Virus record (IMG/VR): IMGVR_UViG_3300046543_000386
Span: 2,754-66,753 of that record
Source: a virus
Reading direction: 5' to 3' (one strand)
DNA: 64,000 nt
Shown: positions 3,672-54,112 of the stretch, in pieces
How positions within the stretch are numbered: the first letter of the stretch is position 1
Layout: the number at the start of each line of letters is the position of its first letter
Program-made: the position numbers and the translations under genes
Notes under the pieces: model-generated
Databases searched by the model: none
The model's input: only the letters and a program-made list of their open reading frames with translations
Told to the model about the DNA's origin: nothing

Positions 3672-3935
3672 ATGCGTGAGATCCAGCTACCCCAGGTCAA
3701 TTGGAACGGCACCAGCCGCGACAGCCTGTTCAACCAATACCTCGCCGCCATTCGCGGCCTTGAGGGCGCCATGGAGATCCTGGCCCGTACCGCCCCGCAT
3801 GGCCGCGACTACCAGACCCTGGCCGACCCCAGCGAAGCCTTCGCCATTGCCGTCGAGCAGCACCGCGACCGGCTGGTGGCGCTGCACAAGGTATCGGAAG
3901 AGCTTCACGCCCTGGCCGAGAGCGTGCAGCCGTGA
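3672..3935 (+). CDS. hypothetical phage protein
   Basis: MREIQLPQVNWNGTS...PHGRDYQ; GAGGG RBS; upstream TTGACA-N17-TACGAG candidate promoter (3594-3622). Confidence 0.65.
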   Translation: MREIQLPQVNWNGTSRDSLFNQYLAAIRGLEGAMEILARTAPHGRDYQTLADPSEAFAIAVEQHRDRLVALHKVSEELHALAESVQP

Positions 3936-46145: not shown

Positions 46146-46538
46146 TTACCACACGAAATCTGGATGTTGCACACGTCCCTTGACGTTCACGTCCTCCAAG
46201 ATCCGGCAGGGGTGACCATTGATGGTCAGCGCCCAGCCGTCGGAAACGCGGAAGAAAACCCAATCGTTGACGCGGATATCGATGCCAGTGAACCAGTTCG
46301 CGGTGGGGTCCACGAACGCGGTGGCGCCCTTTTTCATGATCAGCCCGACCTTGCCCTGCACCCGGTCCTCGCTGCGGGTCGTGTCGGCCAGCAGGATGCC
46401 GCCCTTGGTTGTCGGGGGACGGATGTAGATCGCCACCAGAAGCTGATTGTTGAAGATCTCGATATTATCAAGGGCACCGACCGCCTTGGCCAATTCCAGC
46501 TTGGGGTCGATGTCGTGCTTCATAACGGCAAACGCCAT
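46146..46538 (-). CDS. groES: GroES/Cpn10-like co-chaperonin
   Basis: QLLV....PTTKGGILLAD mobile loop, GKVGLIMKKG, VNDWVFF, CRILEDVNVKGRV. Confidence 0.8.
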   Translation of the reverse strand: MAFAVMKHDIDPKLELAKAVGALDNIEIFNNQLLVAIYIRPPTTKGGILLADTTRSEDRVQGKVGLIMKKGATAFVDPTANWFTGIDIRVNDWVFFRVSDGWALTINGHPCRILEDVNVKGRVQHPDFVW

Positions 46539-46549
46539 AGGCTGATCCT

Positions 46550-46750
46550 TTAACGGGTAAGCATTACCTTCTTGGCGATCTCGTCGCAGATATCCTCGGC
46601 GGCACGGAGGCCCTGAATCACCCCAGTCGCCCGCTGGTAATCCACTCCAGCCCCGCCCCACGAAAGCTCTTCCTTCCGCGCCTCGATCTCGTCACGCAGC
46701 GCCTTGCGCAGTTCCTGCTCAAACAGAATGCCGGTGGTGAACACCGTCAT
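46550..46750 (-). CDS. hypothetical protein
   Basis: DYQRATGVIQGLRAAE; upstream of the GroES-like gene. Confidence 0.65.
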   Translation of the reverse strand: MTVFTTGILFEQELRKALRDEIEARKEELSWGGAGVDYQRATGVIQGLRAAEDICDEIAKKVMLTR

Positions 46751-46756
46751 CCACCG

Positions 46757-47854
46757 TCAGCCCTTGCCGTACTCATCGATCTTCTCCAGCCGCCCCTCGC
46801 CGCTTCCGGCGCCCGCGTTCATCTTGGGGAATTTATGGGTGGTCCGACCGCCGCGCGCGCGAGGCATCATGCCGGGTGGCGGCATGGGCGGCCCGCCCGC
46901 GCCAGGAGGTGGCCCCATCGGAGGTCCCCCGGCACCTGGGGGCGGGCCACCCATCGGAGGCGGCCCACCAGGGGGCATTCCAGGGCCACCGCCGCCCGGC
47001 ATCATGCCCGGGGGCGGCCCGCCACGCGGCGCCCCTGGCGGGGGCATGGGCGGCCCTGGCGGGCCTCCCGGCGGCGACAGCCCGGCATCCTGCGGCTTGC
47101 CCTGGGTTATAATGATGTTGACGTTGGTCTTGCCCGATTTGCTGGATTTCTTCTCGCCGCCGCCAAGCTGGCCGCCATAGGCGCGCCTGACGCGCCCGCC
47201 GCCGCATTTCTCCATCGCGTCGTCTTTGTCGTTGTCGGGTACCTTCAGGGCGAATTTCGGCTTCTTGTCGTCTTTCTTGTCCTCTTTGCGTTCCTCTTTC
47301 TTGTCGCCCTTCTTGGATTCGAACTTGGCGAACCCGCCCTTCTTCATCATCGACAGCTTGCCCGCCGATACCGGCGAGAAGCTCATGCGGCTCGCGGGCA
47401 CCCCGGAACGCCCCGTGGATGCCGCCAATCCCTCGTTCTGCGACGCCTCCGGTCCCAGCCCGGCCCCGCCGCCATCCTGCTTGTTCACCGCGCCGCCGCG
47501 CTTCATGCCCCCGATATGCTTGGTGCCGACGCGCTCTTCGTTGGCGTCCTTGGTGTTACGGTTGATGAAATTGGTCGGCGTCAGCGCCGATCCGCCATTC
47601 TTGCGCGCCAAGCGCCCGGCATGCGACGGCGTGGCCGGTCCCGGTACCTTCAGCCCCGCCTTGACGGAGGTGACATGCCCGCCACGGCGATACTGGCGCA
47701 TGGAAAGGGGCCGCATGCCGGTTTTCGCGTTGGCGTTCAGCGCCTCGGGCGGCGTCCAGCTACTCGCGTCCACTTTCTGGTGCGGATCGGCACTGCCCAT
47801 GCGCTTGGCCTTGGCTTTCATGGCTTCGCGGGCGTCCTGGCTCATCGTGGACAT
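46757..47854 (-). CDS. low-complexity basic/Pro-Gly-rich virion protein with repeated [K/R]xxGG motifs
   Basis: AAGGAG RBS before MSTMSQD; YRRGG, RKNGG, MKRGG, MKKGG, RAYGG, RARGG. Confidence 0.7.
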   Translation of the reverse strand: MSTMSQDAREAMKAKAKRMGSADPHQKVDASSWTPPEALNANAKTGMRPLSMRQYRRGGHVTSVKAGLKVPGPATPSHAGRLARKNGGSALTPTNFINRNTKDANEERVGTKHIGGMKRGGAVNKQDGGGAGLGPEASQNEGLAASTGRSGVPASRMSFSPVSAGKLSMMKKGGFAKFESKKGDKKEERKEDKKDDKKPKFALKVPDNDKDDAMEKCGGGRVRRAYGGQLGGGEKKSSKSGKTNVNIIITQGKPQDAGLSPPGGPPGPPMPPPGAPRGGPPPGMMPGGGGPGMPPGGPPPMGGPPPGAGGPPMGPPPGAGGPPMPPPGMMPRARGGRTTHKFPKMNAGAGSGEGRLEKIDEYGKG

Positions 47855-47963
47855 GTAATTTGGCTCCTTTGCGGAGTGAGTGGGCGACAAACAGCGCGTT
47901 TTGGGCCGTTTTTGCAAGATTTTGACCCTGATCGGCTCACTATTGATGGTTTGAGGGCGATTT

Positions 47964-50660
47964 TCATGCGCGGGCCTCGCGAAAATGCCGCGCGGCGGCC
48001 AAAGCCCGGTCGATGACGGGTCCGGAGACGCCAACCGGGCCGCCATAGGCCTTTTTCGCCGGTTTTCTGCCCCCTGACGCGTGTTTGGCGATGCGTTTGG
48101 CGTAGGTTTTCACCGCCTGCGTCTGCTTTTTCACCGCCGCGTCGTAATCGGCGACCTTGTCACCCTCGCGGGTGTTGTAAAAATCATGCTTGTTGGGGTC
48201 GTAGGCCATGTGAACAACGTCGGGACGCCCGCCATTGAAGTGATGGAAGGTGTCGTAATCCCATCCCGGGGGCGCGAACTCGTCGTTGAAGGGCAATCGG
48301 CTGACGGCGTGGAAGCGATTGCGCGAATAGAGGTGCGGTAGCGTGGTGTCGAACGCATCCAGCTTCCGACCGCCCTGCTGCACCGCCAGATCGAGTAGCG
48401 AATTAACCACATTGCGATGATTGCCGCGCGCCTTGTTGTTGAATACCGAAACGATGTCGTCGCCCTTGAGCGCGAAGCCGGTCGCCTTGTCAGGCGACAG
48501 GAACAGCTTCATGCCCGCATACTCTTTGGGGTCGTAGGCATGCACCGCCGCCGCGTGCGGGCCGACCCCCTTGGCGTGGAGCATCGCCTCGTGGAACACG
48601 GCGCCGCTGCGGGCGCCCGGCATAAGCTCGTGCATGGACGGGGCGGATATCCCCGCCTCGTCCCATACACGCTTGGCCTCGGGATGAGGGTCGTGGGTGC
48701 TGCGAACAGCCGCGCCGAAATCGGGCGCTAGTTGTTGCGCTCCACTTCCTCCTGCTCTTCGGGCGTAAGTTGCGGGTAACCCGTCCCTACCCCGTCCTGC
48801 GACCCCGTGGGCTGTCCGCGTGGCGCGGCCGAGTTGCCGGGCGCGGGCGAAGCGGTCCACTTCCTGAGGTTCCAGTCCTGAAGGTGCTCCGGAAGGTCCG
48901 CCTCCAGTTCCGGGTGCCACGGCGGCGGGCTGCCCATGTGCGCCACCTTCAGGTACTCCTCTCTCGTAACTGGAATCCCATTCTCTTTCAGAATCTGGAT
49001 CACCGGATCGTCGTGCCCATGACGGCTCATTCATGCCTCCTGCCAACGTCAATATCTGCTGCCGCGCCTCCGGGGCCGACAGCAATCCATTCGTGACGTT
49101 ATCCCATATTCCATGCACCTGCGCAATCAGATTGCGGTCGCGCTTCTGCTTGGGCGAGAACAGGCCGCGAATACCTTCCCAGGTGATGGACTGCATCTCA
49201 CGCGGCAACAGCCCTTCCTGCAACGCCGCCGCGCGCTTGGCGTCGGCATGCAGCGGGTAGGTGCCCGACACCCCGGTGAGATCGGAACTCTTGGCCGCTG
49301 GCGGCTTGGCCATGGTGCGAACAGGTTCCGGCAGCCCCTTGGCCTTGGCCGCCGCCACAAGGCGCTTATGCGGGTCCAGCGTATCGGTGCCAAAGTTGTG
49401 CGACACCTCGGTCGAACTGCCGCCCAGCGGGCGCAGCAGGTTTGCCGCCACCGCATGGGTGTCGATGGTCACGTCACCATGCGGCGCATCCGGCGCCAGC
49501 AGATTGTTGTAGAAATTGCGCACCTTGTGCTTGTCGCCCATCAGCCGCGACAGCGCCGATTTGCTGCCGTTGGACTGCGCCGCCTGCACCGCCTTGGAAA
49601 TCTCCGACAGCGACCCCCAACTGGTCTGCGAGGGATCGCCCTCCGTCGGCTCGGCACCTTCCTCCTCATCGTCGGACGTGCTGGCGTCTTCCTTGGTCCT
49701 GACCCGGCCAAACGCGCCCTCGGGCGTCACCAGTCGGTGCCAGCGCGGGTTGTGCGCCTCGTCATGCAGGCGGATGAACATCGCCTTGTGCTTGGGGTCC
49801 TCGATATCGGCCAGCTTCTTGCCGCGTATCGCGTCCAGCGACACGTCGTGCCGCCCTTCGAAAAAGACCCGGTTGGCGTGGTCCTCCATCTCCTTGGTGT
49901 AATGCGTCTCGTGCTGACGATGCAGCGCATCGAGCACCCGCTCGGCCAGGGAGACGTTCTGATACCAGTCCTTCTGCGGCGACAGCGCCGCCAGCGTGCC
50001 CGCCACCGCGCTGTCAGGCATGTTGTAGCGCTTGGCGAAGCTGTCCACGATCCGACGGCCGCCCTTGTACCAAAGCTTGGCGCGGTCGCGGATATGCTCG
50101 GGCATGGTGTCGTGCAGGAATTTCAGATTGCCCTGCGCGAGGTTGTTGAAATGGTGCAGGATCTCGTCGTGGTTGGCACCCTCCTGGCGCAGATGCGCGG
50201 GCATCCCCGGATACTGCGCCAGCAACTCGACGTTGTGCTTGTGCGCCTTGTCGCCCTGCGCCGACGACGCCGTGTCCACCATCAGATTGCCGGTGATCGG
50301 ATTATCGCCCTTGGCGCTTTTCGGCGTGCGCTGCGAGATCCGATCCGGGTGATCGCCATCCGCCTGCAAGCGATTGCGGTAGCCCGCGAAGGCACTGCGT
50401 GGCGCCATGGGGGCACTGCGTGGCGCCCGCACCTGTTCAGGGCTGGCAGGCGCAGGCGCCACGACAGGCTGCGCAGTCAAGGTCTGCGCAGAATCTTCAG
50501 GTACAGGGTTCACCGGCACCTCGCCACCCGCAGCATATCGCCCTGGCAAGGGGCCAATCTCGCGGCCAATGCCCTTGGCCACCTGGGCTGCACGGCGGAT
50601 CGCCGCCGTGTTGTCCTGGCCATAGGACAGCGCCCTGGCCATCGACGGGGGATACGCCAT
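47964..50660 (-). CDS. polyvalent-type protein: HhH-glycosylase-like helical domain plus C-terminal GNAT-like domain
   Basis: WY...LAALSPQKDWYQN...HKVRNFYNN...VTIDTHAV...MQSITWEGIR; C-terminal GFALKGDDIVSVF...AVQQGGRKLDAFDT.LPHLYSRNRF...GRPDVVHM. Confidence 0.6.
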   Translation of the reverse strand: MAYPPSMARALSYGQDNTAAIRRAAQVAKGIGREIGPLPGRYAAGGEVPVNPVPEDSAQTLTAQPVVAPAPASPEQVRAPRSAPMAPRSAFAGYRNRLQADGDHPDRISQRTPKSAKGDNPITGNLMVDTASSAQGDKAHKHNVELLAQYPGMPAHLRQEGANHDEILHHFNNLAQGNLKFLHDTMPEHIRDRAKLWYKGGRRIVDSFAKRYNMPDSAVAGTLAALSPQKDWYQNVSLAERVLDALHRQHETHYTKEMEDHANRVFFEGRHDVSLDAIRGKKLADIEDPKHKAMFIRLHDEAHNPRWHRLVTPEGAFGRVRTKEDASTSDDEEEGAEPTEGDPSQTSWGSLSEISKAVQAAQSNGSKSALSRLMGDKHKVRNFYNNLLAPDAPHGDVTIDTHAVAANLLRPLGGSSTEVSHNFGTDTLDPHKRLVAAAKAKGLPEPVRTMAKPPAAKSSDLTGVSGTYPLHADAKRAAALQEGLLPREMQSITWEGIRGLFSPKQKRDRNLIAQVHGIWDNVTNGLLSAPEARQQILTLAGGMNEPSWARRSGDPDSEREWDSSYERGVPEGGAHGQPAAVAPGTGGGPSGAPSGLEPQEVDRFARARQLGRATRTAHGVAGRGRDGLPATYARRAGGSGAQQLAPDFGAAVRSTHDPHPEAKRVWDEAGISAPSMHELMPGARSGAVFHEAMLHAKGVGPHAAAVHAYDPKEYAGMKLFLSPDKATGFALKGDDIVSVFNNKARGNHRNVVNSLLDLAVQQGGRKLDAFDTTLPHLYSRNRFHAVSRLPFNDEFAPPGWDYDTFHHFNGGRPDVVHMAYDPNKHDFYNTREGDKVADYDAAVKKQTQAVKTYAKRIAKHASGGRKPAKKAYGGPVGVSGPVIDRALAAARHFREARA
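48728..49030 (-). CDS. nested (overlapping-frame) small protein inside the 898-aa gene
   Basis: GGAGG RBS; DDPVIQILKENGIPVTREEYLKVAHMGSPP...LEADLPEHLQ; GC-rich third positions shift into this frame. Confidence 0.62.
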   Translation of the reverse strand: MSRHGHDDPVIQILKENGIPVTREEYLKVAHMGSPPPWHPELEADLPEHLQDWNLRKWTASPAPGNSAAPRGQPTGSQDGVGTGYPQLTPEEQEEVERNN

Positions 50661-51550
50661 CAGGTTCTCCCTCCGCGCTCGTAGCGGCGCTTGATCTCGG
50701 GCGTCCGGTCATCGAACACCACGAAGTTGTGGGCGTCCCTCTTGCCGCTGCGACTGTTGGCATCGAGGTAGCGAATGCCGGGGATGCCTGCGGCTTTCAG
50801 CCGCTCCATCGCATGCGCCTGGGCCTTGGCGTTCTGCGTGCGCGGCTTGTCGGTGTGAACCTGGGGCGCCATCGCGGCAATGAATTTGTGCAGATCCTGC
50901 CCGGTCATCGCCTCGGCACGGTCATGCCAGTCGGGGTTGAACAGCGTCTTCACCGCTGCCTGCACGTGCGGGTGCTGCGCCTTCACCGGCCGGTCCCAAT
51001 GCAGGAAATGCTCGGGATCGGCATTAAGCCGCACCTGATACATCGCCCCCGGCGTGTGCAGCTTGGCCTGCGGATACTTGGCGCGCATCTCGGCGGCGTG
51101 CTGCTTAAACTTGGGCACGTGCTTGGGATAGAAATCGTTTTCGATCTTCTTGTGCAACGCGTCCCAATCGCCGCCCGCGTCGATGAAATCCATCAGGGTG
51201 AACATATGATCTTGGTGCAGGTTGTCGGCGTGGGTGATGTCGTCCACCGTCTGCGGCCCGCGCCCGGTGCCCAGGTCGATACGCGGGTCCTTGTCGCGTG
51301 ACAGGCGGTCGCGATAGCCCTTGGCGATGCCCTCGTCCTGAGCGAAATACAGCCCGCGCCCATAGGCCTGATTGCCCTCGCCAGTGCCGATCTTGGACAT
51401 GTCGAAGCGGTCGAAATAATGCGGGCTGCCGTGGTACACATCCACGCCGGGGGCGTCCTCGGGCTGCGCTTCGACCTGTCCGCCCGCGTCGCGCCGCACC
51501 AGCCGGGCCGCCAAGAGCGCACGCCGCACGGGTTTGCCGCTGTCGCTCAC
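50660..51550 (-). CDS. ADP-ribosyltransferase-like protein (polyvalent-protein ART type)
   Basis: VYHGSPHYFDRFD...GTGEG.QAYGRGLYFA...AKGY...MYQV...GIPGIRYLD...NFVVFDD. Confidence 0.72.
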   Translation of the reverse strand: MSDSGKPVRRALLAARLVRRDAGGQVEAQPEDAPGVDVYHGSPHYFDRFDMSKIGTGEGNQAYGRGLYFAQDEGIAKGYRDRLSRDKDPRIDLGTGRGPQTVDDITHADNLHQDHMFTLMDFIDAGGDWDALHKKIENDFYPKHVPKFKQHAAEMRAKYPQAKLHTPGAMYQVRLNADPEHFLHWDRPVKAQHPHVQAAVKTLFNPDWHDRAEAMTGQDLHKFIAAMAPQVHTDKPRTQNAKAQAHAMERLKAAGIPGIRYLDANSRSGKRDAHNFVVFDDRTPEIKRRYERGGRT

Positions 51551-53907
51551 GGCGCAAGGCCTGCCTCGGGCGCCTCGCCGCCCTCGGCAGGTTCACCCGT
51601 GGCCTTGTCGGCCTTGCTCACCAGCCCCTCGGCAATGGGTGCGGTGTCAGGATGCAGGATCACCTCGCGCGCGATGTTCAACATCTCCAGCTTCTCCTTG
51701 CTGGCGCGGTCGGCCTTCTTCTCATGCGCGGTGCTCAACGTCGCACCGCGCTGCGTGTCGGCCTGCTGCTGACGGGTCTGCGCGTCCATCAGCTTGGCCT
51801 GCGCGTTCATCTGATCGATCTGCGGATTGCCCGGCGCACCGCCCTTGCCCGCCAGCCCGCCAGGATTGGCCTGCGTGTCCACCTGTATCTTCTGCGCCGT
51901 TGCCTGCGCGACCTGCGCCTTGCTCGTCGCTTCCAGCTTCTTGGTGTCGGCGTTCTGCTGATCGACCTTCATCTTGGCCTGCGCCTGCTCAAGCTCAGGC
52001 GGCGGCTTGGCCTGCGCCTCGGGCGGTGCCAGGAACTGATCGGGGTTGCTGTAACCAATCGCCAAAATGGCCGCGCGGTCTATCGCCAGCGGATCATAAA
52101 GCATCGGGCTGGCCTGCTGTAGCTGCTTCAGCGCCATGATCTTCATCATCCGCTGCGTGTGGTTCGCCGTGTTGGGATCGGCCTGCGGCGTCAACTCGCA
52201 GCGATCCAACGCCGCCAGAAAACTCTGATCATCCCAGTTGCAAGACGGCTTCTTGTTGCGCTGCCAGAAACTCTCGGGGTGCTCGCGGAAGGTTCTGACC
52301 AGCAGGCGAAATTCTTCGGCTTGCGAAGCGTGCATGCGCTTATGCACCGCCGACATCACCTTGCTGGCCTGCTCGATCATGGCCAGCGTGGTGCCGACGG
52401 GAGCGTCGGCTCTACCCTCACCCACCTGCTGCTCGCTGGTGCCGCCAATCCGCATGCCGGTCTGGCTGATATCGTTCACCAGGGTCATCAGCGCGGGCGC
52501 GCCCTGCTGGTTATACGGCAGCGGCATCACCGCCTGTGAGATCGGCATGCCGCCGGTCTTCACCAGCGCGCCGCCCCCAGGTGGAATGCGAAAAATGTTG
52601 GTGTTCTGTCGCGCCCCCGTGTCAGCCATAAGAAATCCTGGGAAACACGCGAACATGCCGCCATCCAGCAACTCCCGCCACGCGGCGGTGATGGCGTTGG
52701 TGGTGTTGCCAAGTATGTGCAGTAGCCCGATATCGTAGAATCCCATGCCGGGGACGAAAACATATTTGACAAAGTTATCGCGAGCTTCAGGTAATTCTTG
52801 GTCGTCTTCATCGAAGTTGCGGACAATAGATAGGATCTTCTTTGACGAGACATCGATAGTAACTCGGTAGGGAAGCTCCAAGCCGGTTTCTTTTCCATTT
52901 ATCTTGTGCTCGTAGCCCAGCAGATCCTGCTCGCAATAAATCTCATATACTTCACGATCACGATCCTCCATCCGGCTGGTGCTCTGCGTGATGCCCTGCT
53001 GGCTGTCCTTCTCCTCCTTGGCCGCATCCAGCCTCGGCAAATCCGGCTGCGACAGATCCACGTCGCGATACACCCCCATGATCTGCAACCGCTTCACCGT
53101 CGAGGGTTTCATCATGCTGCGATGCGTGATGCGCCGCGCGTTCCTGAGATCCGTCGCGCTGTAATTCACAATCAGATCGTCGGCATCCACACTCTCGCTG
53201 ACAGGGCGATTGCGCAACGGGCAGTAATAAACCTTCTTGAACGCAGATCCGCCAAACCCAAGCATAAACAACATTCTGTCAGTGTCAGGATAATACTCCG
53301 ACGCCGTCACCGTCAGATAGTGGTTGAGGTCCTTCTCCAGATCATTGGCCTGCCGATCCTGCTCGATGAGCGACGCGTTGCCATCGTCCCTGACCTTGAC
53401 AGGTCCATCCGTCGGCAGCATCTCACCCCGGGCGTTCGCTTGGAAGCGAAGCACGGCTTCCAACAACAGCGGATGCCGCACCCGGCTCATCCCCTCCACA
53501 GGCGCGCCATCACTGGCGCCCTGCACATTCGGCACCTCAACCTTCAACCCAAGGAGCTTAATTCCTTGGGCGCGATCCTCAATCCAATCCTGACGGCTCT
53601 GCAAATCATCCTCAATCAGCCGGATCAGATCGTCGCTGATCCGCCCTAACTCCACATCCGGTAGATCTTCCGACAGATTATCAAACCAATTCTGCGGCTT
53701 GCGCTTGGCCTCGTCCTCCTCGTCAATCGGCCGCCCATCCAGGCTGATGCTGATGCTGCCATCGTCATGCTCCACCCGCAGGCCACTGACATCACCACCA
53801 GACCCGCCCGGTATCTGCTGCGGCGCGACATCGGTCTTGTAGCTGACCGCTACATCCGGCGTGCTAACCAGCCGCAGCGTCGGTGACAGCCCTGGAACGA
53901 GCGGCAA
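51547..53907 (-). CDS. portal protein
   Basis: SRQDW...HPLLLEAVLRFQANA..E.LP.DGPVK...GSAFKKVYY...GFYDIGLLHILG...PVGTTLAMIEQ; TTG start with GAGGAG RBS. Confidence 0.88.
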   Translation of the reverse strand: MPLVPGLSPTLRLVSTPDVAVSYKTDVAPQQIPGGSGGDVSGLRVEHDDGSISISLDGRPIDEEDEAKRKPQNWFDNLSEDLPDVELGRISDDLIRLIEDDLQSRQDWIEDRAQGIKLLGLKVEVPNVQGASDGAPVEGMSRVRHPLLLEAVLRFQANARGEMLPTDGPVKVRDDGNASLIEQDRQANDLEKDLNHYLTVTASEYYPDTDRMLFMLGFGGSAFKKVYYCPLRNRPVSESVDADDLIVNYSATDLRNARRITHRSMMKPSTVKRLQIMGVYRDVDLSQPDLPRLDAAKEEKDSQQGITQSTSRMEDRDREVYEIYCEQDLLGYEHKINGKETGLELPYRVTIDVSSKKILSIVRNFDEDDQELPEARDNFVKYVFVPGMGFYDIGLLHILGNTTNAITAAWRELLDGGMFACFPGFLMADTGARQNTNIFRIPPGGGALVKTGGMPISQAVMPLPYNQQGAPALMTLVNDISQTGMRIGGTSEQQVGEGRADAPVGTTLAMIEQASKVMSAVHKRMHASQAEEFRLLVRTFREHPESFWQRNKKPSCNWDDQSFLAALDRCELTPQADPNTANHTQRMMKIMALKQLQQASPMLYDPLAIDRAAILAIGYSNPDQFLAPPEAQAKPPPELEQAQAKMKVDQQNADTKKLEATSKAQVAQATAQKIQVDTQANPGGLAGKGGAPGNPQIDQMNAQAKLMDAQTRQQQADTQRGATLSTAHEKKADRASKEKLEMLNIAREVILHPDTAPIAEGLVSKADKATGEPAEGGEAPEAGLAP

Positions 53908-54112
53908 GTGCGTATCTCCTCTGGTAGATCGCCATAGCCTCCTGCACCGCACGATAATCCGCCGCAGCCTTCAGGAAAAACGTCTCGACGCAGTTGATCA
54001 GATCCGGCGACCATATAGTAATAAGGTACGTCTCCAACCCCACCTGATCCGCCTGCGCCATCAGGCGCAACTGCACCGTCGGCTCAAACTGCAATTGCGG
54101 GGTGATGATCAC
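53864..54112 (-). CDS. hypothetical protein
   Basis: Coupled small ORF between TerL and portal. Confidence 0.45.
   Translation of the reverse strand: MIITPQLQFEPTVQLRLMAQADQVGLETYLITIWSPDLINCVETFFLKAAADYRAVQEAMAIYQRRYALAARSRAVTDAAAG

Follow-up and report, generated by a model that had tools for sequence, protein, structure and literature searches.

A small open reading frame inside a long gene of the phage head module

We analysed a 64,000-nucleotide (nt) stretch of viral DNA, positions 2,754 to 66,753 of IMG/VR record IMGVR_UViG_3300046543_000386 (hereafter the window), and in it an open reading frame (ORF) of 303 nt that lies entirely within a much longer ORF, on the same strand and in its +1 frame. 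The long ORF, of 898 amino acids (aa), joins a DUF7178 domain, a linker and a C-terminal domain (Table 1). An earlier note, made from the letters alone, had pointed to a 100-aa ORF in the shifted frame at 48728-49030, preceded by a GGAGG ribosome-binding site; the coordinates were correct, and the motif is a complete AGGAGG 5 nt from the ATG. The proposal made there, that this is a real nested gene, is supported by selection in the nested frame, membership in a protein family, a conserved Shine-Dalgarno motif and ATG, the lack of stops in relatives and the lack of a sequencing frameshift. Judging from these comparisons, the 303-nt ORF is very probably a genuine, separately started gene in this nested architecture, an assessment that covers the gene and its arrangement and not its function.

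The AGGAGG motif is separated from the ATG at 49028-49030 by the 5-nt spacer CATGA, inside which a TGA of the nested frame (49031-49033) stands directly before the start codon. A stop at, or one codon before, the start of the small gene was found in five of seven lineages (the window and four more). In the long frame, the DUF7178 region terminates with ...LAGGM and its Ala-Gly-Gly codons are the AGGAGG motif; across loci, the motif likewise corresponds to the Ala/Ser-Gly-Gly codons closing DUF7178. The nested product begins MSRHGHDDPVIQILKENGIPVTREEYLKVAHMG and consists of a conserved core of about 50 residues followed by a variable tail, which ends in the motif GYPxLTxEExEE. In the form G[YF]xxLTxEExEE this motif was present in most of the 14 long-tailed family members (identity 33-73%), and the stretch encoding it in the window, 48731-48781, showed conservation in both frames. 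No promoter was found in a scan of 48500-49500. The gene caller's version of the host gene in the window's own record has 892 aa (P0155), and the nested product is not among the annotated proteins of that record, which has the 892-aa call only.

Base composition and substitutions across the nested ORF

The GC content at third codon positions (GC3) of the long frame was 0.77 over the whole ORF and fell to 0.36-0.46 in 40-codon intervals spanning 48891-49070. Across the same interval the GC content at its first position, which is the third position of the nested frame, climbed to 0.75-0.90, and the nested frame showed normal coding composition over its stretch. The earlier observation that the codons of the long frame turn A/T-ending here (TCA, GCA, CGA, GGT, GAT, CCA, TCT, GAA, AGA) was thus confirmed, both from the sequence and from the drop in GC3.

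Relatives of the nested peptide comprised a homologue called as a gene on a metagenome contig (P0001, 76% identical), the IMG/VR loci L005-L026 and one genome contig, L027. Scans of metagenome contigs for relatives found none, and a search among homologous proteins gave no longer versions. The relatives make at least seven lineages, some of 45-53% GC, and both frames were open in all seven; the nested frame was also stop-free in 74 further loci. We compared the window with L007 (74% nt identity) over long-frame aa 551-610 and observed differences of 0.17-0.27 at long-frame position 1 versus 0.00-0.10 at positions 2 and 3. A codon alignment of the seven lineages gave a similar profile: diversity at long-frame position 3, which is 0.5-0.75 elsewhere, was 0.07-0.29 in nested codons ~9-54, and the most variable position there was long-frame position 1, the nested third (0.40-0.55). 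An equal substitution pattern was obtained in an independent clade of 17 loci. The window and L015 show 13 differences in a 43-codon core; of these, 10 are synonymous for the nested reading and 2 for the long one. L022 and L023 show 15 there, with corresponding counts of 11 and 3. Changes of the nested-frame synonymous type dominated even between lineages with only ~40% protein identity. Frame-specific conservation in homologous loci, suggested at the outset as a check, was therefore seen for codons ~9-54 of the nested frame, together with a lack of nested-frame stops in relatives.

The small-protein family

A search with the 100-aa peptide, also suggested earlier, revealed a large small-protein family: phmmer returned 211 proteins at E<=1e-3 among 1.84 billion representatives, the best at 1.4e-27. 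Among the 150 family matches listed, most were 53-110 aa long and aligned to nested aa ~6-55. The family consensus reads ...DDPVLELLKENGIPVTRENYLELAYMGEPPEPWTAELEAELPEELQDWSKF; the proteins are acidic, with a median isoelectric point of 4.6 and a net charge of -7, and all source names seen for members were 'hypothetical protein'. The small protein had no match in Pfam, PHROGs, NCBIfam or PADLOC, nor in PDB searched both by sequence and by profile. None of 50,697 GenBank phage records matched the nested peptide, P0060 or P0016 by tblastn, no cultured phage carrying this locus was found, and a scan of viral contigs for relatives of P0102 gave none. In the ESM Atlas, the homologue P0016 led only to unnamed viral and bacterial clusters. 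A few large members (P0036, P0102, P0104, P0109, P0129 and P0132) carry the small domain in frame at the N-terminus with other effector domains behind it, such as a Zeta_toxin domain in P0129 and a P-loop region in P0132.

Three further members share one 90% cluster: P0146 and P0154, of 110 aa each, and P0153, of 57 aa, whose end (...APSWHSD) is read in the DUF7178 frame. P0153 diverges from the other two as if by a one-base indel, which could mean that the in-frame variant is genuine, that the lineage depends on frameshifting or that there is an error in the sequence.

Linkage to DUF7178 and start signals

A scan of IMG/VR with ten family members gave 78 loci of 34-65% GC, 52 of them with distinct DNA. 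In 50 of the 52 the small domain was in frame +1, and its start fell between -26 and +64 nt relative to where the DUF7178 profile ends; of the two exceptions, one is in +2 after a gap of 452 nt and the other has no DUF7178 in the locus. PF23802 was found in all ten related long ORFs tested. For the converse, we chose loci by DUF7178 (the best 80 of at least 564 matches), which left 71 distinct evaluable junctions: the small domain was in +1 at 63, in +2 at 3, in frame at none and missing at 5. In L134 and L165 it forms an ordinary separate gene in +2, after the DUF7178 stop.

Start signals were strongly enriched. A start codon with AGGAGG 4-9 nt upstream was present in 24 of the 52 loci, with a 5-mer of the motif in 7, a 4-mer in 17 and none in 4. 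As a control, 4021 other +1-frame start codons of the same long ORFs carried the hexamer in 3 cases (0.07%), the 5-mer in 1% and the 4-mer in 5%. The start was ATG in 99 of 107 loci.

Genes 3' to the small gene were examined in ten other loci; eight matched no Pfam family and the other two matched DUF2213 and a portal. The nested gene had been described as inseparable from its adjacent domains. This holds for DUF7178 upstream (50/52 loci, 63/71 junctions) but not for the downstream domain, which is variable or absent.

The small-protein profile weakly matched 3489-3734 of L185 (GenBank OP947163; E 3.6e-4 over profile positions 4-34), inside a giant coding sequence named 'methyltransferase'. 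The match lies in the +1 frame at the DUF7178 end, in an unannotated open stretch of 81 codons, and may be a diverged or decaying copy.

Three architectures of the DUF7178 junction

A comparison of 103-107 distinct loci separated three arrangements. In the short-overlap state (27-28 loci) the DUF7178 ORF stops 20-110 nt past the start of the small gene. In the covering state (44-45 loci) it spans the whole small gene, of ~62 aa, and stops soon after, with an overlap of 203-362 nt. In the read-through state, to which the window belongs (31-35 loci), it continues for more than 100 codons into other domains. Within the small-gene core, short-overlap loci had 2-6 stops of the DUF7178 frame (mean 3.5), whereas none of the 76 covering and read-through loci had any. 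The third frame had 3.2, 1.5 and 3.5 stops there in the short-overlap, covering and read-through states, respectively. With the small protein held fixed and codons resampled from the usage of the DUF7178 gene, the median chance of an open DUF7178 frame was 0.075 for covering and 0.047 for read-through loci. Codon choice in the small gene is therefore constrained so as to leave the other frame open, and both frames are probably used. Where the DUF7178 ORF ends early, the region is coding in the frame of the small gene only.

In a FastTree phylogeny of 116 DUF7178 sequences, which is unrooted, the three states were interleaved, with at least 16 changes among them. Domains reached by read-through included a prohead protease and a capsid protein (L028), RadC (L039), LPD38 (L043) and the C-terminal domain of the window's clade.

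Two of these arrangements deserve mention for themselves. In L028 a single frame of at least 1938 codons holds DUF7178, the embedded small gene, a Peptidase_S78 prohead protease and Phage_capsid; if real, the effector domain would be made fused to protease and capsid protein. In covering loci such as L068, L071 and L075 the DUF7178 ORF stops 13-30 codons past the small gene and no further domain follows, and the frame is still stop-free.

Sequencing error and other explanations

Contigs from independent runs covered 47900-48967 (X2), 48661-50102 (X3) and 48413-48902 (X4) with no differences and no gaps relative to the window. A sequencing frameshift was rejected, three contigs of independent runs reproducing the region gap-free. 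Nested-frame stops in homologues with conservation confined to the long frame, and a sequencing frameshift, the two outcomes named earlier as fatal to a nested gene, were both looked for and neither was found. Short high-depth contigs from four soil or rhizosphere runs matched only 48901-48933, 49504-49545 and 49743-49780 (33-42 nt) and had unrelated flanks; other organisms in the samples share those stretches. Apparent indels at 48911-48917 were discounted on the same ground: the contigs bearing them match only 48901-48933 and diverge from the window on both sides, hence the indels stem from other organisms.

Several results weigh against a nested gene of the kind proposed, or limit what can be drawn from it. 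By itself, the openness of the nested frame is within chance: in this 64% GC genome it is reached with P 0.65 by synonymous resampling, open +1-frame runs of 100-131 codons occur elsewhere in the 898-aa ORF, P(open) ranges over 0.07-0.65 in the window's clade and is not significant alone, and, with the long protein held fixed, the 47-codon tail after QDW stays free of stops with P=0.77. Tests of openness that take the long protein as given are uninformative, because the small gene itself dictates the long-frame residues there; the above-chance signal is composition, substitution pattern and homology, not openness. From nested codon ~55 the substitution pattern reverts to the long-frame type, so that selection on the window's nested tail rests only on the protein-level motif. 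No Shine-Dalgarno-like motif was found in 4 of 52 loci, and P0146 and P0154 fuse the small domain in frame to the end of DUF7178 with no obvious start codon of its own; separate initiation is therefore not universal. The sampling of loci is biased, on one side by the pattern used for scanning (PVTRENY[IL]) and on the other by ranking DUF7178 matches by likeness to an alignment of small-gene-carrying loci. Many loci are close relatives (39 of the 44 covering-state loci in the tree are one clade), and the FastTree phylogeny has long branches. The small gene is absent, or leaves a weak trace only, in three GenBank phages with DUF7178; since these and 5 of the 71 junctions do without it, DUF7178 can work without the small gene. 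As to function, the small protein matched nothing in Pfam, PHROGs, NCBIfam, PADLOC or PDB, and to our knowledge no activity of DUF7178 has been described.

The frame relation itself suggests another way to make the small domain. A programmed +1 ribosomal frameshift at the end of DUF7178 would yield a DUF7178-small-domain protein beside the unshifted 898-aa protein, much as lambda-like phages make a frameshifted pair of tail chaperones. This would fit the constant +1 relation (50/52 loci, 63/71 junctions), the tight junction of -26 to +64 nt, and the in-frame fusion of P0146 and P0154 with the 57-aa P0153 of the same 90% cluster ending in the DUF7178 frame. However, start codons preceded at 4-9 nt by a Shine-Dalgarno motif are far commoner than in the control, and 99 of 107 loci use ATG. 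The window has a nested-frame TGA just before its ATG, in five of seven lineages a stop stands at the start or one codon ahead of it, and L134 and L165 carry the small gene as a separate +2 gene past the DUF7178 stop. An Rfam search of 48400-49400 gave no frameshift element or other RNA family, and neither a conserved slippery site nor a downstream frame lacking its own start was found. In the window a frameshift fusion is unlikely, given that a stop precedes the ATG, that the spacing is of the initiation type and that neither a slippery site nor an Rfam element was found, and as a general account of the junction we regard it as highly improbable. Separate initiation is the best-supported route to the small protein.

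The long ORF may be doubted instead of the small one: it could be two genes split by the small gene, the open long frame being an accident of high GC and the C-terminal domain being produced from a separate start or through a -1 shift out of the small gene. The window's genome is rich in long open alternative frames, the long frame looks non-coding in composition across the small gene, and in P0036, P0102, P0104, P0109, P0129 and P0132 the small domain is the in-frame N-terminus of effectors. On the other hand, a long-frame stop within the small gene is absent from all seven lineages, including those of 45-53% GC, and from all 31 read-through loci, for which the median chance of an open frame is 0.047. 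From nested codon ~55, still ahead of the nested stop, substitutions again follow the long-frame pattern. That stretch holds no conserved start codon (the L015/L007 lineage lacks the Met of SAPSM), nor is any X_XXY_YYZ heptamer conserved after QDW, none being present in the window, L015, L019 and L023; a -1 frameshift from the small gene into the C-terminal domain was rejected for lack of a conserved slippery heptamer. An ORF split in this way is thus again very unlikely. Least probable of all is that the nested-frame signal exists without translation, as the relic of a once in-frame domain or through a constraint acting on the RNA or DNA itself. The domain does occur in frame elsewhere, but a relic should decay, yet changes synonymous in the nested frame dominate across distant lineages; the start signals are retained, no known RNA family was found in 48400-49400, and short-overlap loci have the region coding in the small gene's frame only.

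The host gene and its surroundings

Table 1. Features of the nested locus and its neighbourhood in the window
Feature	Position	Strand	Remarks
Nested small gene	48728-49030	minus	100 aa and TAG; +1 frame of the 898-aa ORF 47964-50660
Shine-Dalgarno motif AGGAGG	49036-49041	minus	5 nt before the nested ATG; kept in relatives
Conserved core of the small protein, aa 6-55 = DDPVIQILKENGIPVTREEYLKVAHMGSPPPWHPELEADLPEHLQDW	48866-49015	minus	nested-frame purifying selection; family profile 92.6 bits, E 9e-28
C-terminal motif of the long-tailed subfamily, aa 84-100 = GYPQLTPEEQEEVERNN	48731-48781	minus	overlaps the conserved long-frame LPATYARRAGG
Long ORF, 898 aa including stop	47964-50660	minus	DUF7178 domain, ~100-aa read-through linker, C-terminal domain; phage head module
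DUF7178 (PF23802) region, aa 104-543	49032-50351	minus	Pfam 77.5 bits against a cut-off of 27; 27-sequence alignment
Read-through ('shadow') linker, aa 544-644	48729-49031	minus	G/A/R/P-rich, low GC3, stop-free
C-terminal domain, aa 664-877	48030-48671	minus	no Pfam family; matches phrog_2563
SU10-type portal gene	51547-53952	minus	upstream of the 898-aa ORF
ART-PolyVal-like gene	50660-51550	minus	upstream of the 898-aa ORF

The family of DUF7178 is large, with at least 1008 proteins at E<=1e-10 and at least 564 matches in IMG/VR; its relatives are called nothing more specific than 'hypothetical' or 'DUF7178 family protein', a literature search on it found no paper, and PDB sequence and profile searches with DUF7178 and the 898-aa protein gave no match. 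The linker consists in the long frame of 19% G, 15% A and 13% R. We compared the long ORF with GenBank phages by tblastn: aa 108-554 matched the DUF7178 parts of three phage proteins, aa 664-877 matched relatives of the C-terminal domain, and nothing matched between both regions. This unmatched stretch is the site of the nested ORF. The C-terminal domain is 40-44% identical to the C-terminus of a Microbacterium phage 'minor capsid protein' and to part of a giant ORF of Limnohabitans phage DC33. In L176 the same domain (1148-1540) stands upstream of DUF7178 (end at 3679) within one long ORF, and it therefore moves between positions in these proteins.

Gene borders vary on the other side as well. 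In the window the ART-PolyVal-like gene is separate, its stop overlapping the start of the 898-aa ORF, whereas in L007 (1363-5106) the ART-PolyVal-like part and the long-ORF part form a single ORF of 1247 aa, a further fusion or split of a gene border in the long-ORF protein. Beyond the 3' end lies a 429-aa ORF (46757-48046, minus strand) that as listed overlaps the 898-aa ORF by 83 nt; it has a long Pro/Gly-rich low-complexity C-terminal part and no Pfam or PHROG family, and a counterpart follows the long ORF in L007 (5024-6406) and L012 (4806-6785). A 171-aa ORF of the head module (46146-46661, minus strand) showed a weak GroES/Cpn10-like match (phrog_3188, E 1.3e-6; Pfam Cpn10 under the cut-off).

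A model of the locus and a possible role of the small protein

According to the reading that we prefer, ribosomes would begin the small protein at a separate Shine-Dalgarno motif and ATG that lie within the mRNA for the 898-aa product. The DUF7178 ORF, which lacks a stop here, would read through the whole small gene and so join DUF7178 to the C-terminal domain. One stretch of DNA would then give two products, the fusion protein and the small protein, with selection keeping both frames open. The compositionally odd linker of ~100 aa is explained by this read-through of the small gene in the other frame. The gene had been pictured as hidden in the linker; the history was likely the reverse. We read the small gene as the older, conserved frame because its composition is normal and homologues of it are present wherever the DUF7178 ORF stops early, and the linker would have arisen when DUF7178 lost its stop.

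The small gene keeps a fixed place where DUF7178 ends, starts within the DUF7178 ORF and is inherited together with it, all of which points to a protein acting on or with DUF7178. We lean, with some reserve, towards a small protein that binds the DUF7178 part of a head-packaged effector and is made in step with it by translational coupling. From the position of the gene, an inhibitor or immunity partner or a chaperone, as proposed in the earlier note, is plausible. More specifically, an inhibitor or immunity-like cap is possible but rather unlikely, and an assembly or packaging adaptor is more doubtful again; the in-frame fusions to other effectors fit an adaptor role at least as well as an inhibitor or chaperone role. 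More broadly, we offer tentatively that the small family may be an obligate partner of DUF7178, that polyvalent head-packaged effectors repeatedly grow by read-through with embedded genes as a regular by-product, and that the small protein may be a cap or docking piece controlling or loading the effector.

Same-strand embedded genes with good comparative support are few in bacterial phages, and automatic annotation drops them. Present in more than 100 distinct loci, the arrangement is a family-wide case of a common small protein overlooked by gene finders, and annotation pipelines would do well to check DUF7178 ends for a small ORF. The coexistence of short overlap, full cover and full embedding among relatives offers a natural control, in which codon choice is shaped to keep a second frame open. 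It also suggests a route by which multi-domain effector proteins may grow, namely stop loss and read-through across an intervening gene. Finally, a conserved small acidic protein would be a first handle on what DUF7178, a large domain family found next to portal genes, does.

Comparison with known systems

The closest parallel in form is the Rz/Rz1 pair of spanin genes of lambdoid phages, where a small gene with its own start lies inside a larger gene on the same strand in the +1 frame. As there, the embedded product here may act with the product of the host gene. Unlike Rz1, the small protein carries no lipoprotein signal: its 100-aa sequence has neither a Cys nor a hydrophobic N-terminus. 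The surroundings are portal and head genes, not a lysis cassette; conservation is in the frame of the embedded gene, the protein segment around it being a filler linker; and embedded, covered and merely overlapping states coexist among relatives.

The host gene resembles the polyvalent proteins (Iyer et al. 2017, PMC5512222) in being multi-domain, portal-adjacent, probably packaged in the capsid and next to an ART-PolyVal-like gene; relatives of the window carry LPD38 and RadC domains. The main text of PMC5512222 describes no embedded gene in polyvalent proteins (the terms 'frameshift' and 'overlapping' do not appear there), its supplementary domain lists lying outside this scope. A small acidic protein encoded right after one domain of a portal-adjacent head protein also recalls the immunity genes of polymorphic and MuF toxins (PMC5576092). 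A small ORF does directly follow one domain here and is co-inherited with it, a likeness of position and linkage only. Unlike in such pairs, the small gene lies inside the effector gene and not after it, DUF7178 is not known to be toxic, and the small domain is also fused in frame before unrelated effectors (Zeta toxin in P0129), which would be unusual for an immunity protein.

Overlapping genes can arise by stop loss between contiguous genes in different frames, route 'a' of PMC2268670. The series of states and the two-frame composition observed here fit such an extension of an upstream ORF over a pre-existing gene. Here the extension does more than lengthen the upstream gene, which it fuses to further domains in 31-35 loci; the direction of the change is inferred, as the tree is unrooted. 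A literature search, within a scope that excludes supplements, which may list the domain, gave no description of this family, of a systematic association with DUF7178 or of repeated engulfment in genes for polyvalent proteins. Embedded same-strand genes as such are already known in phages.

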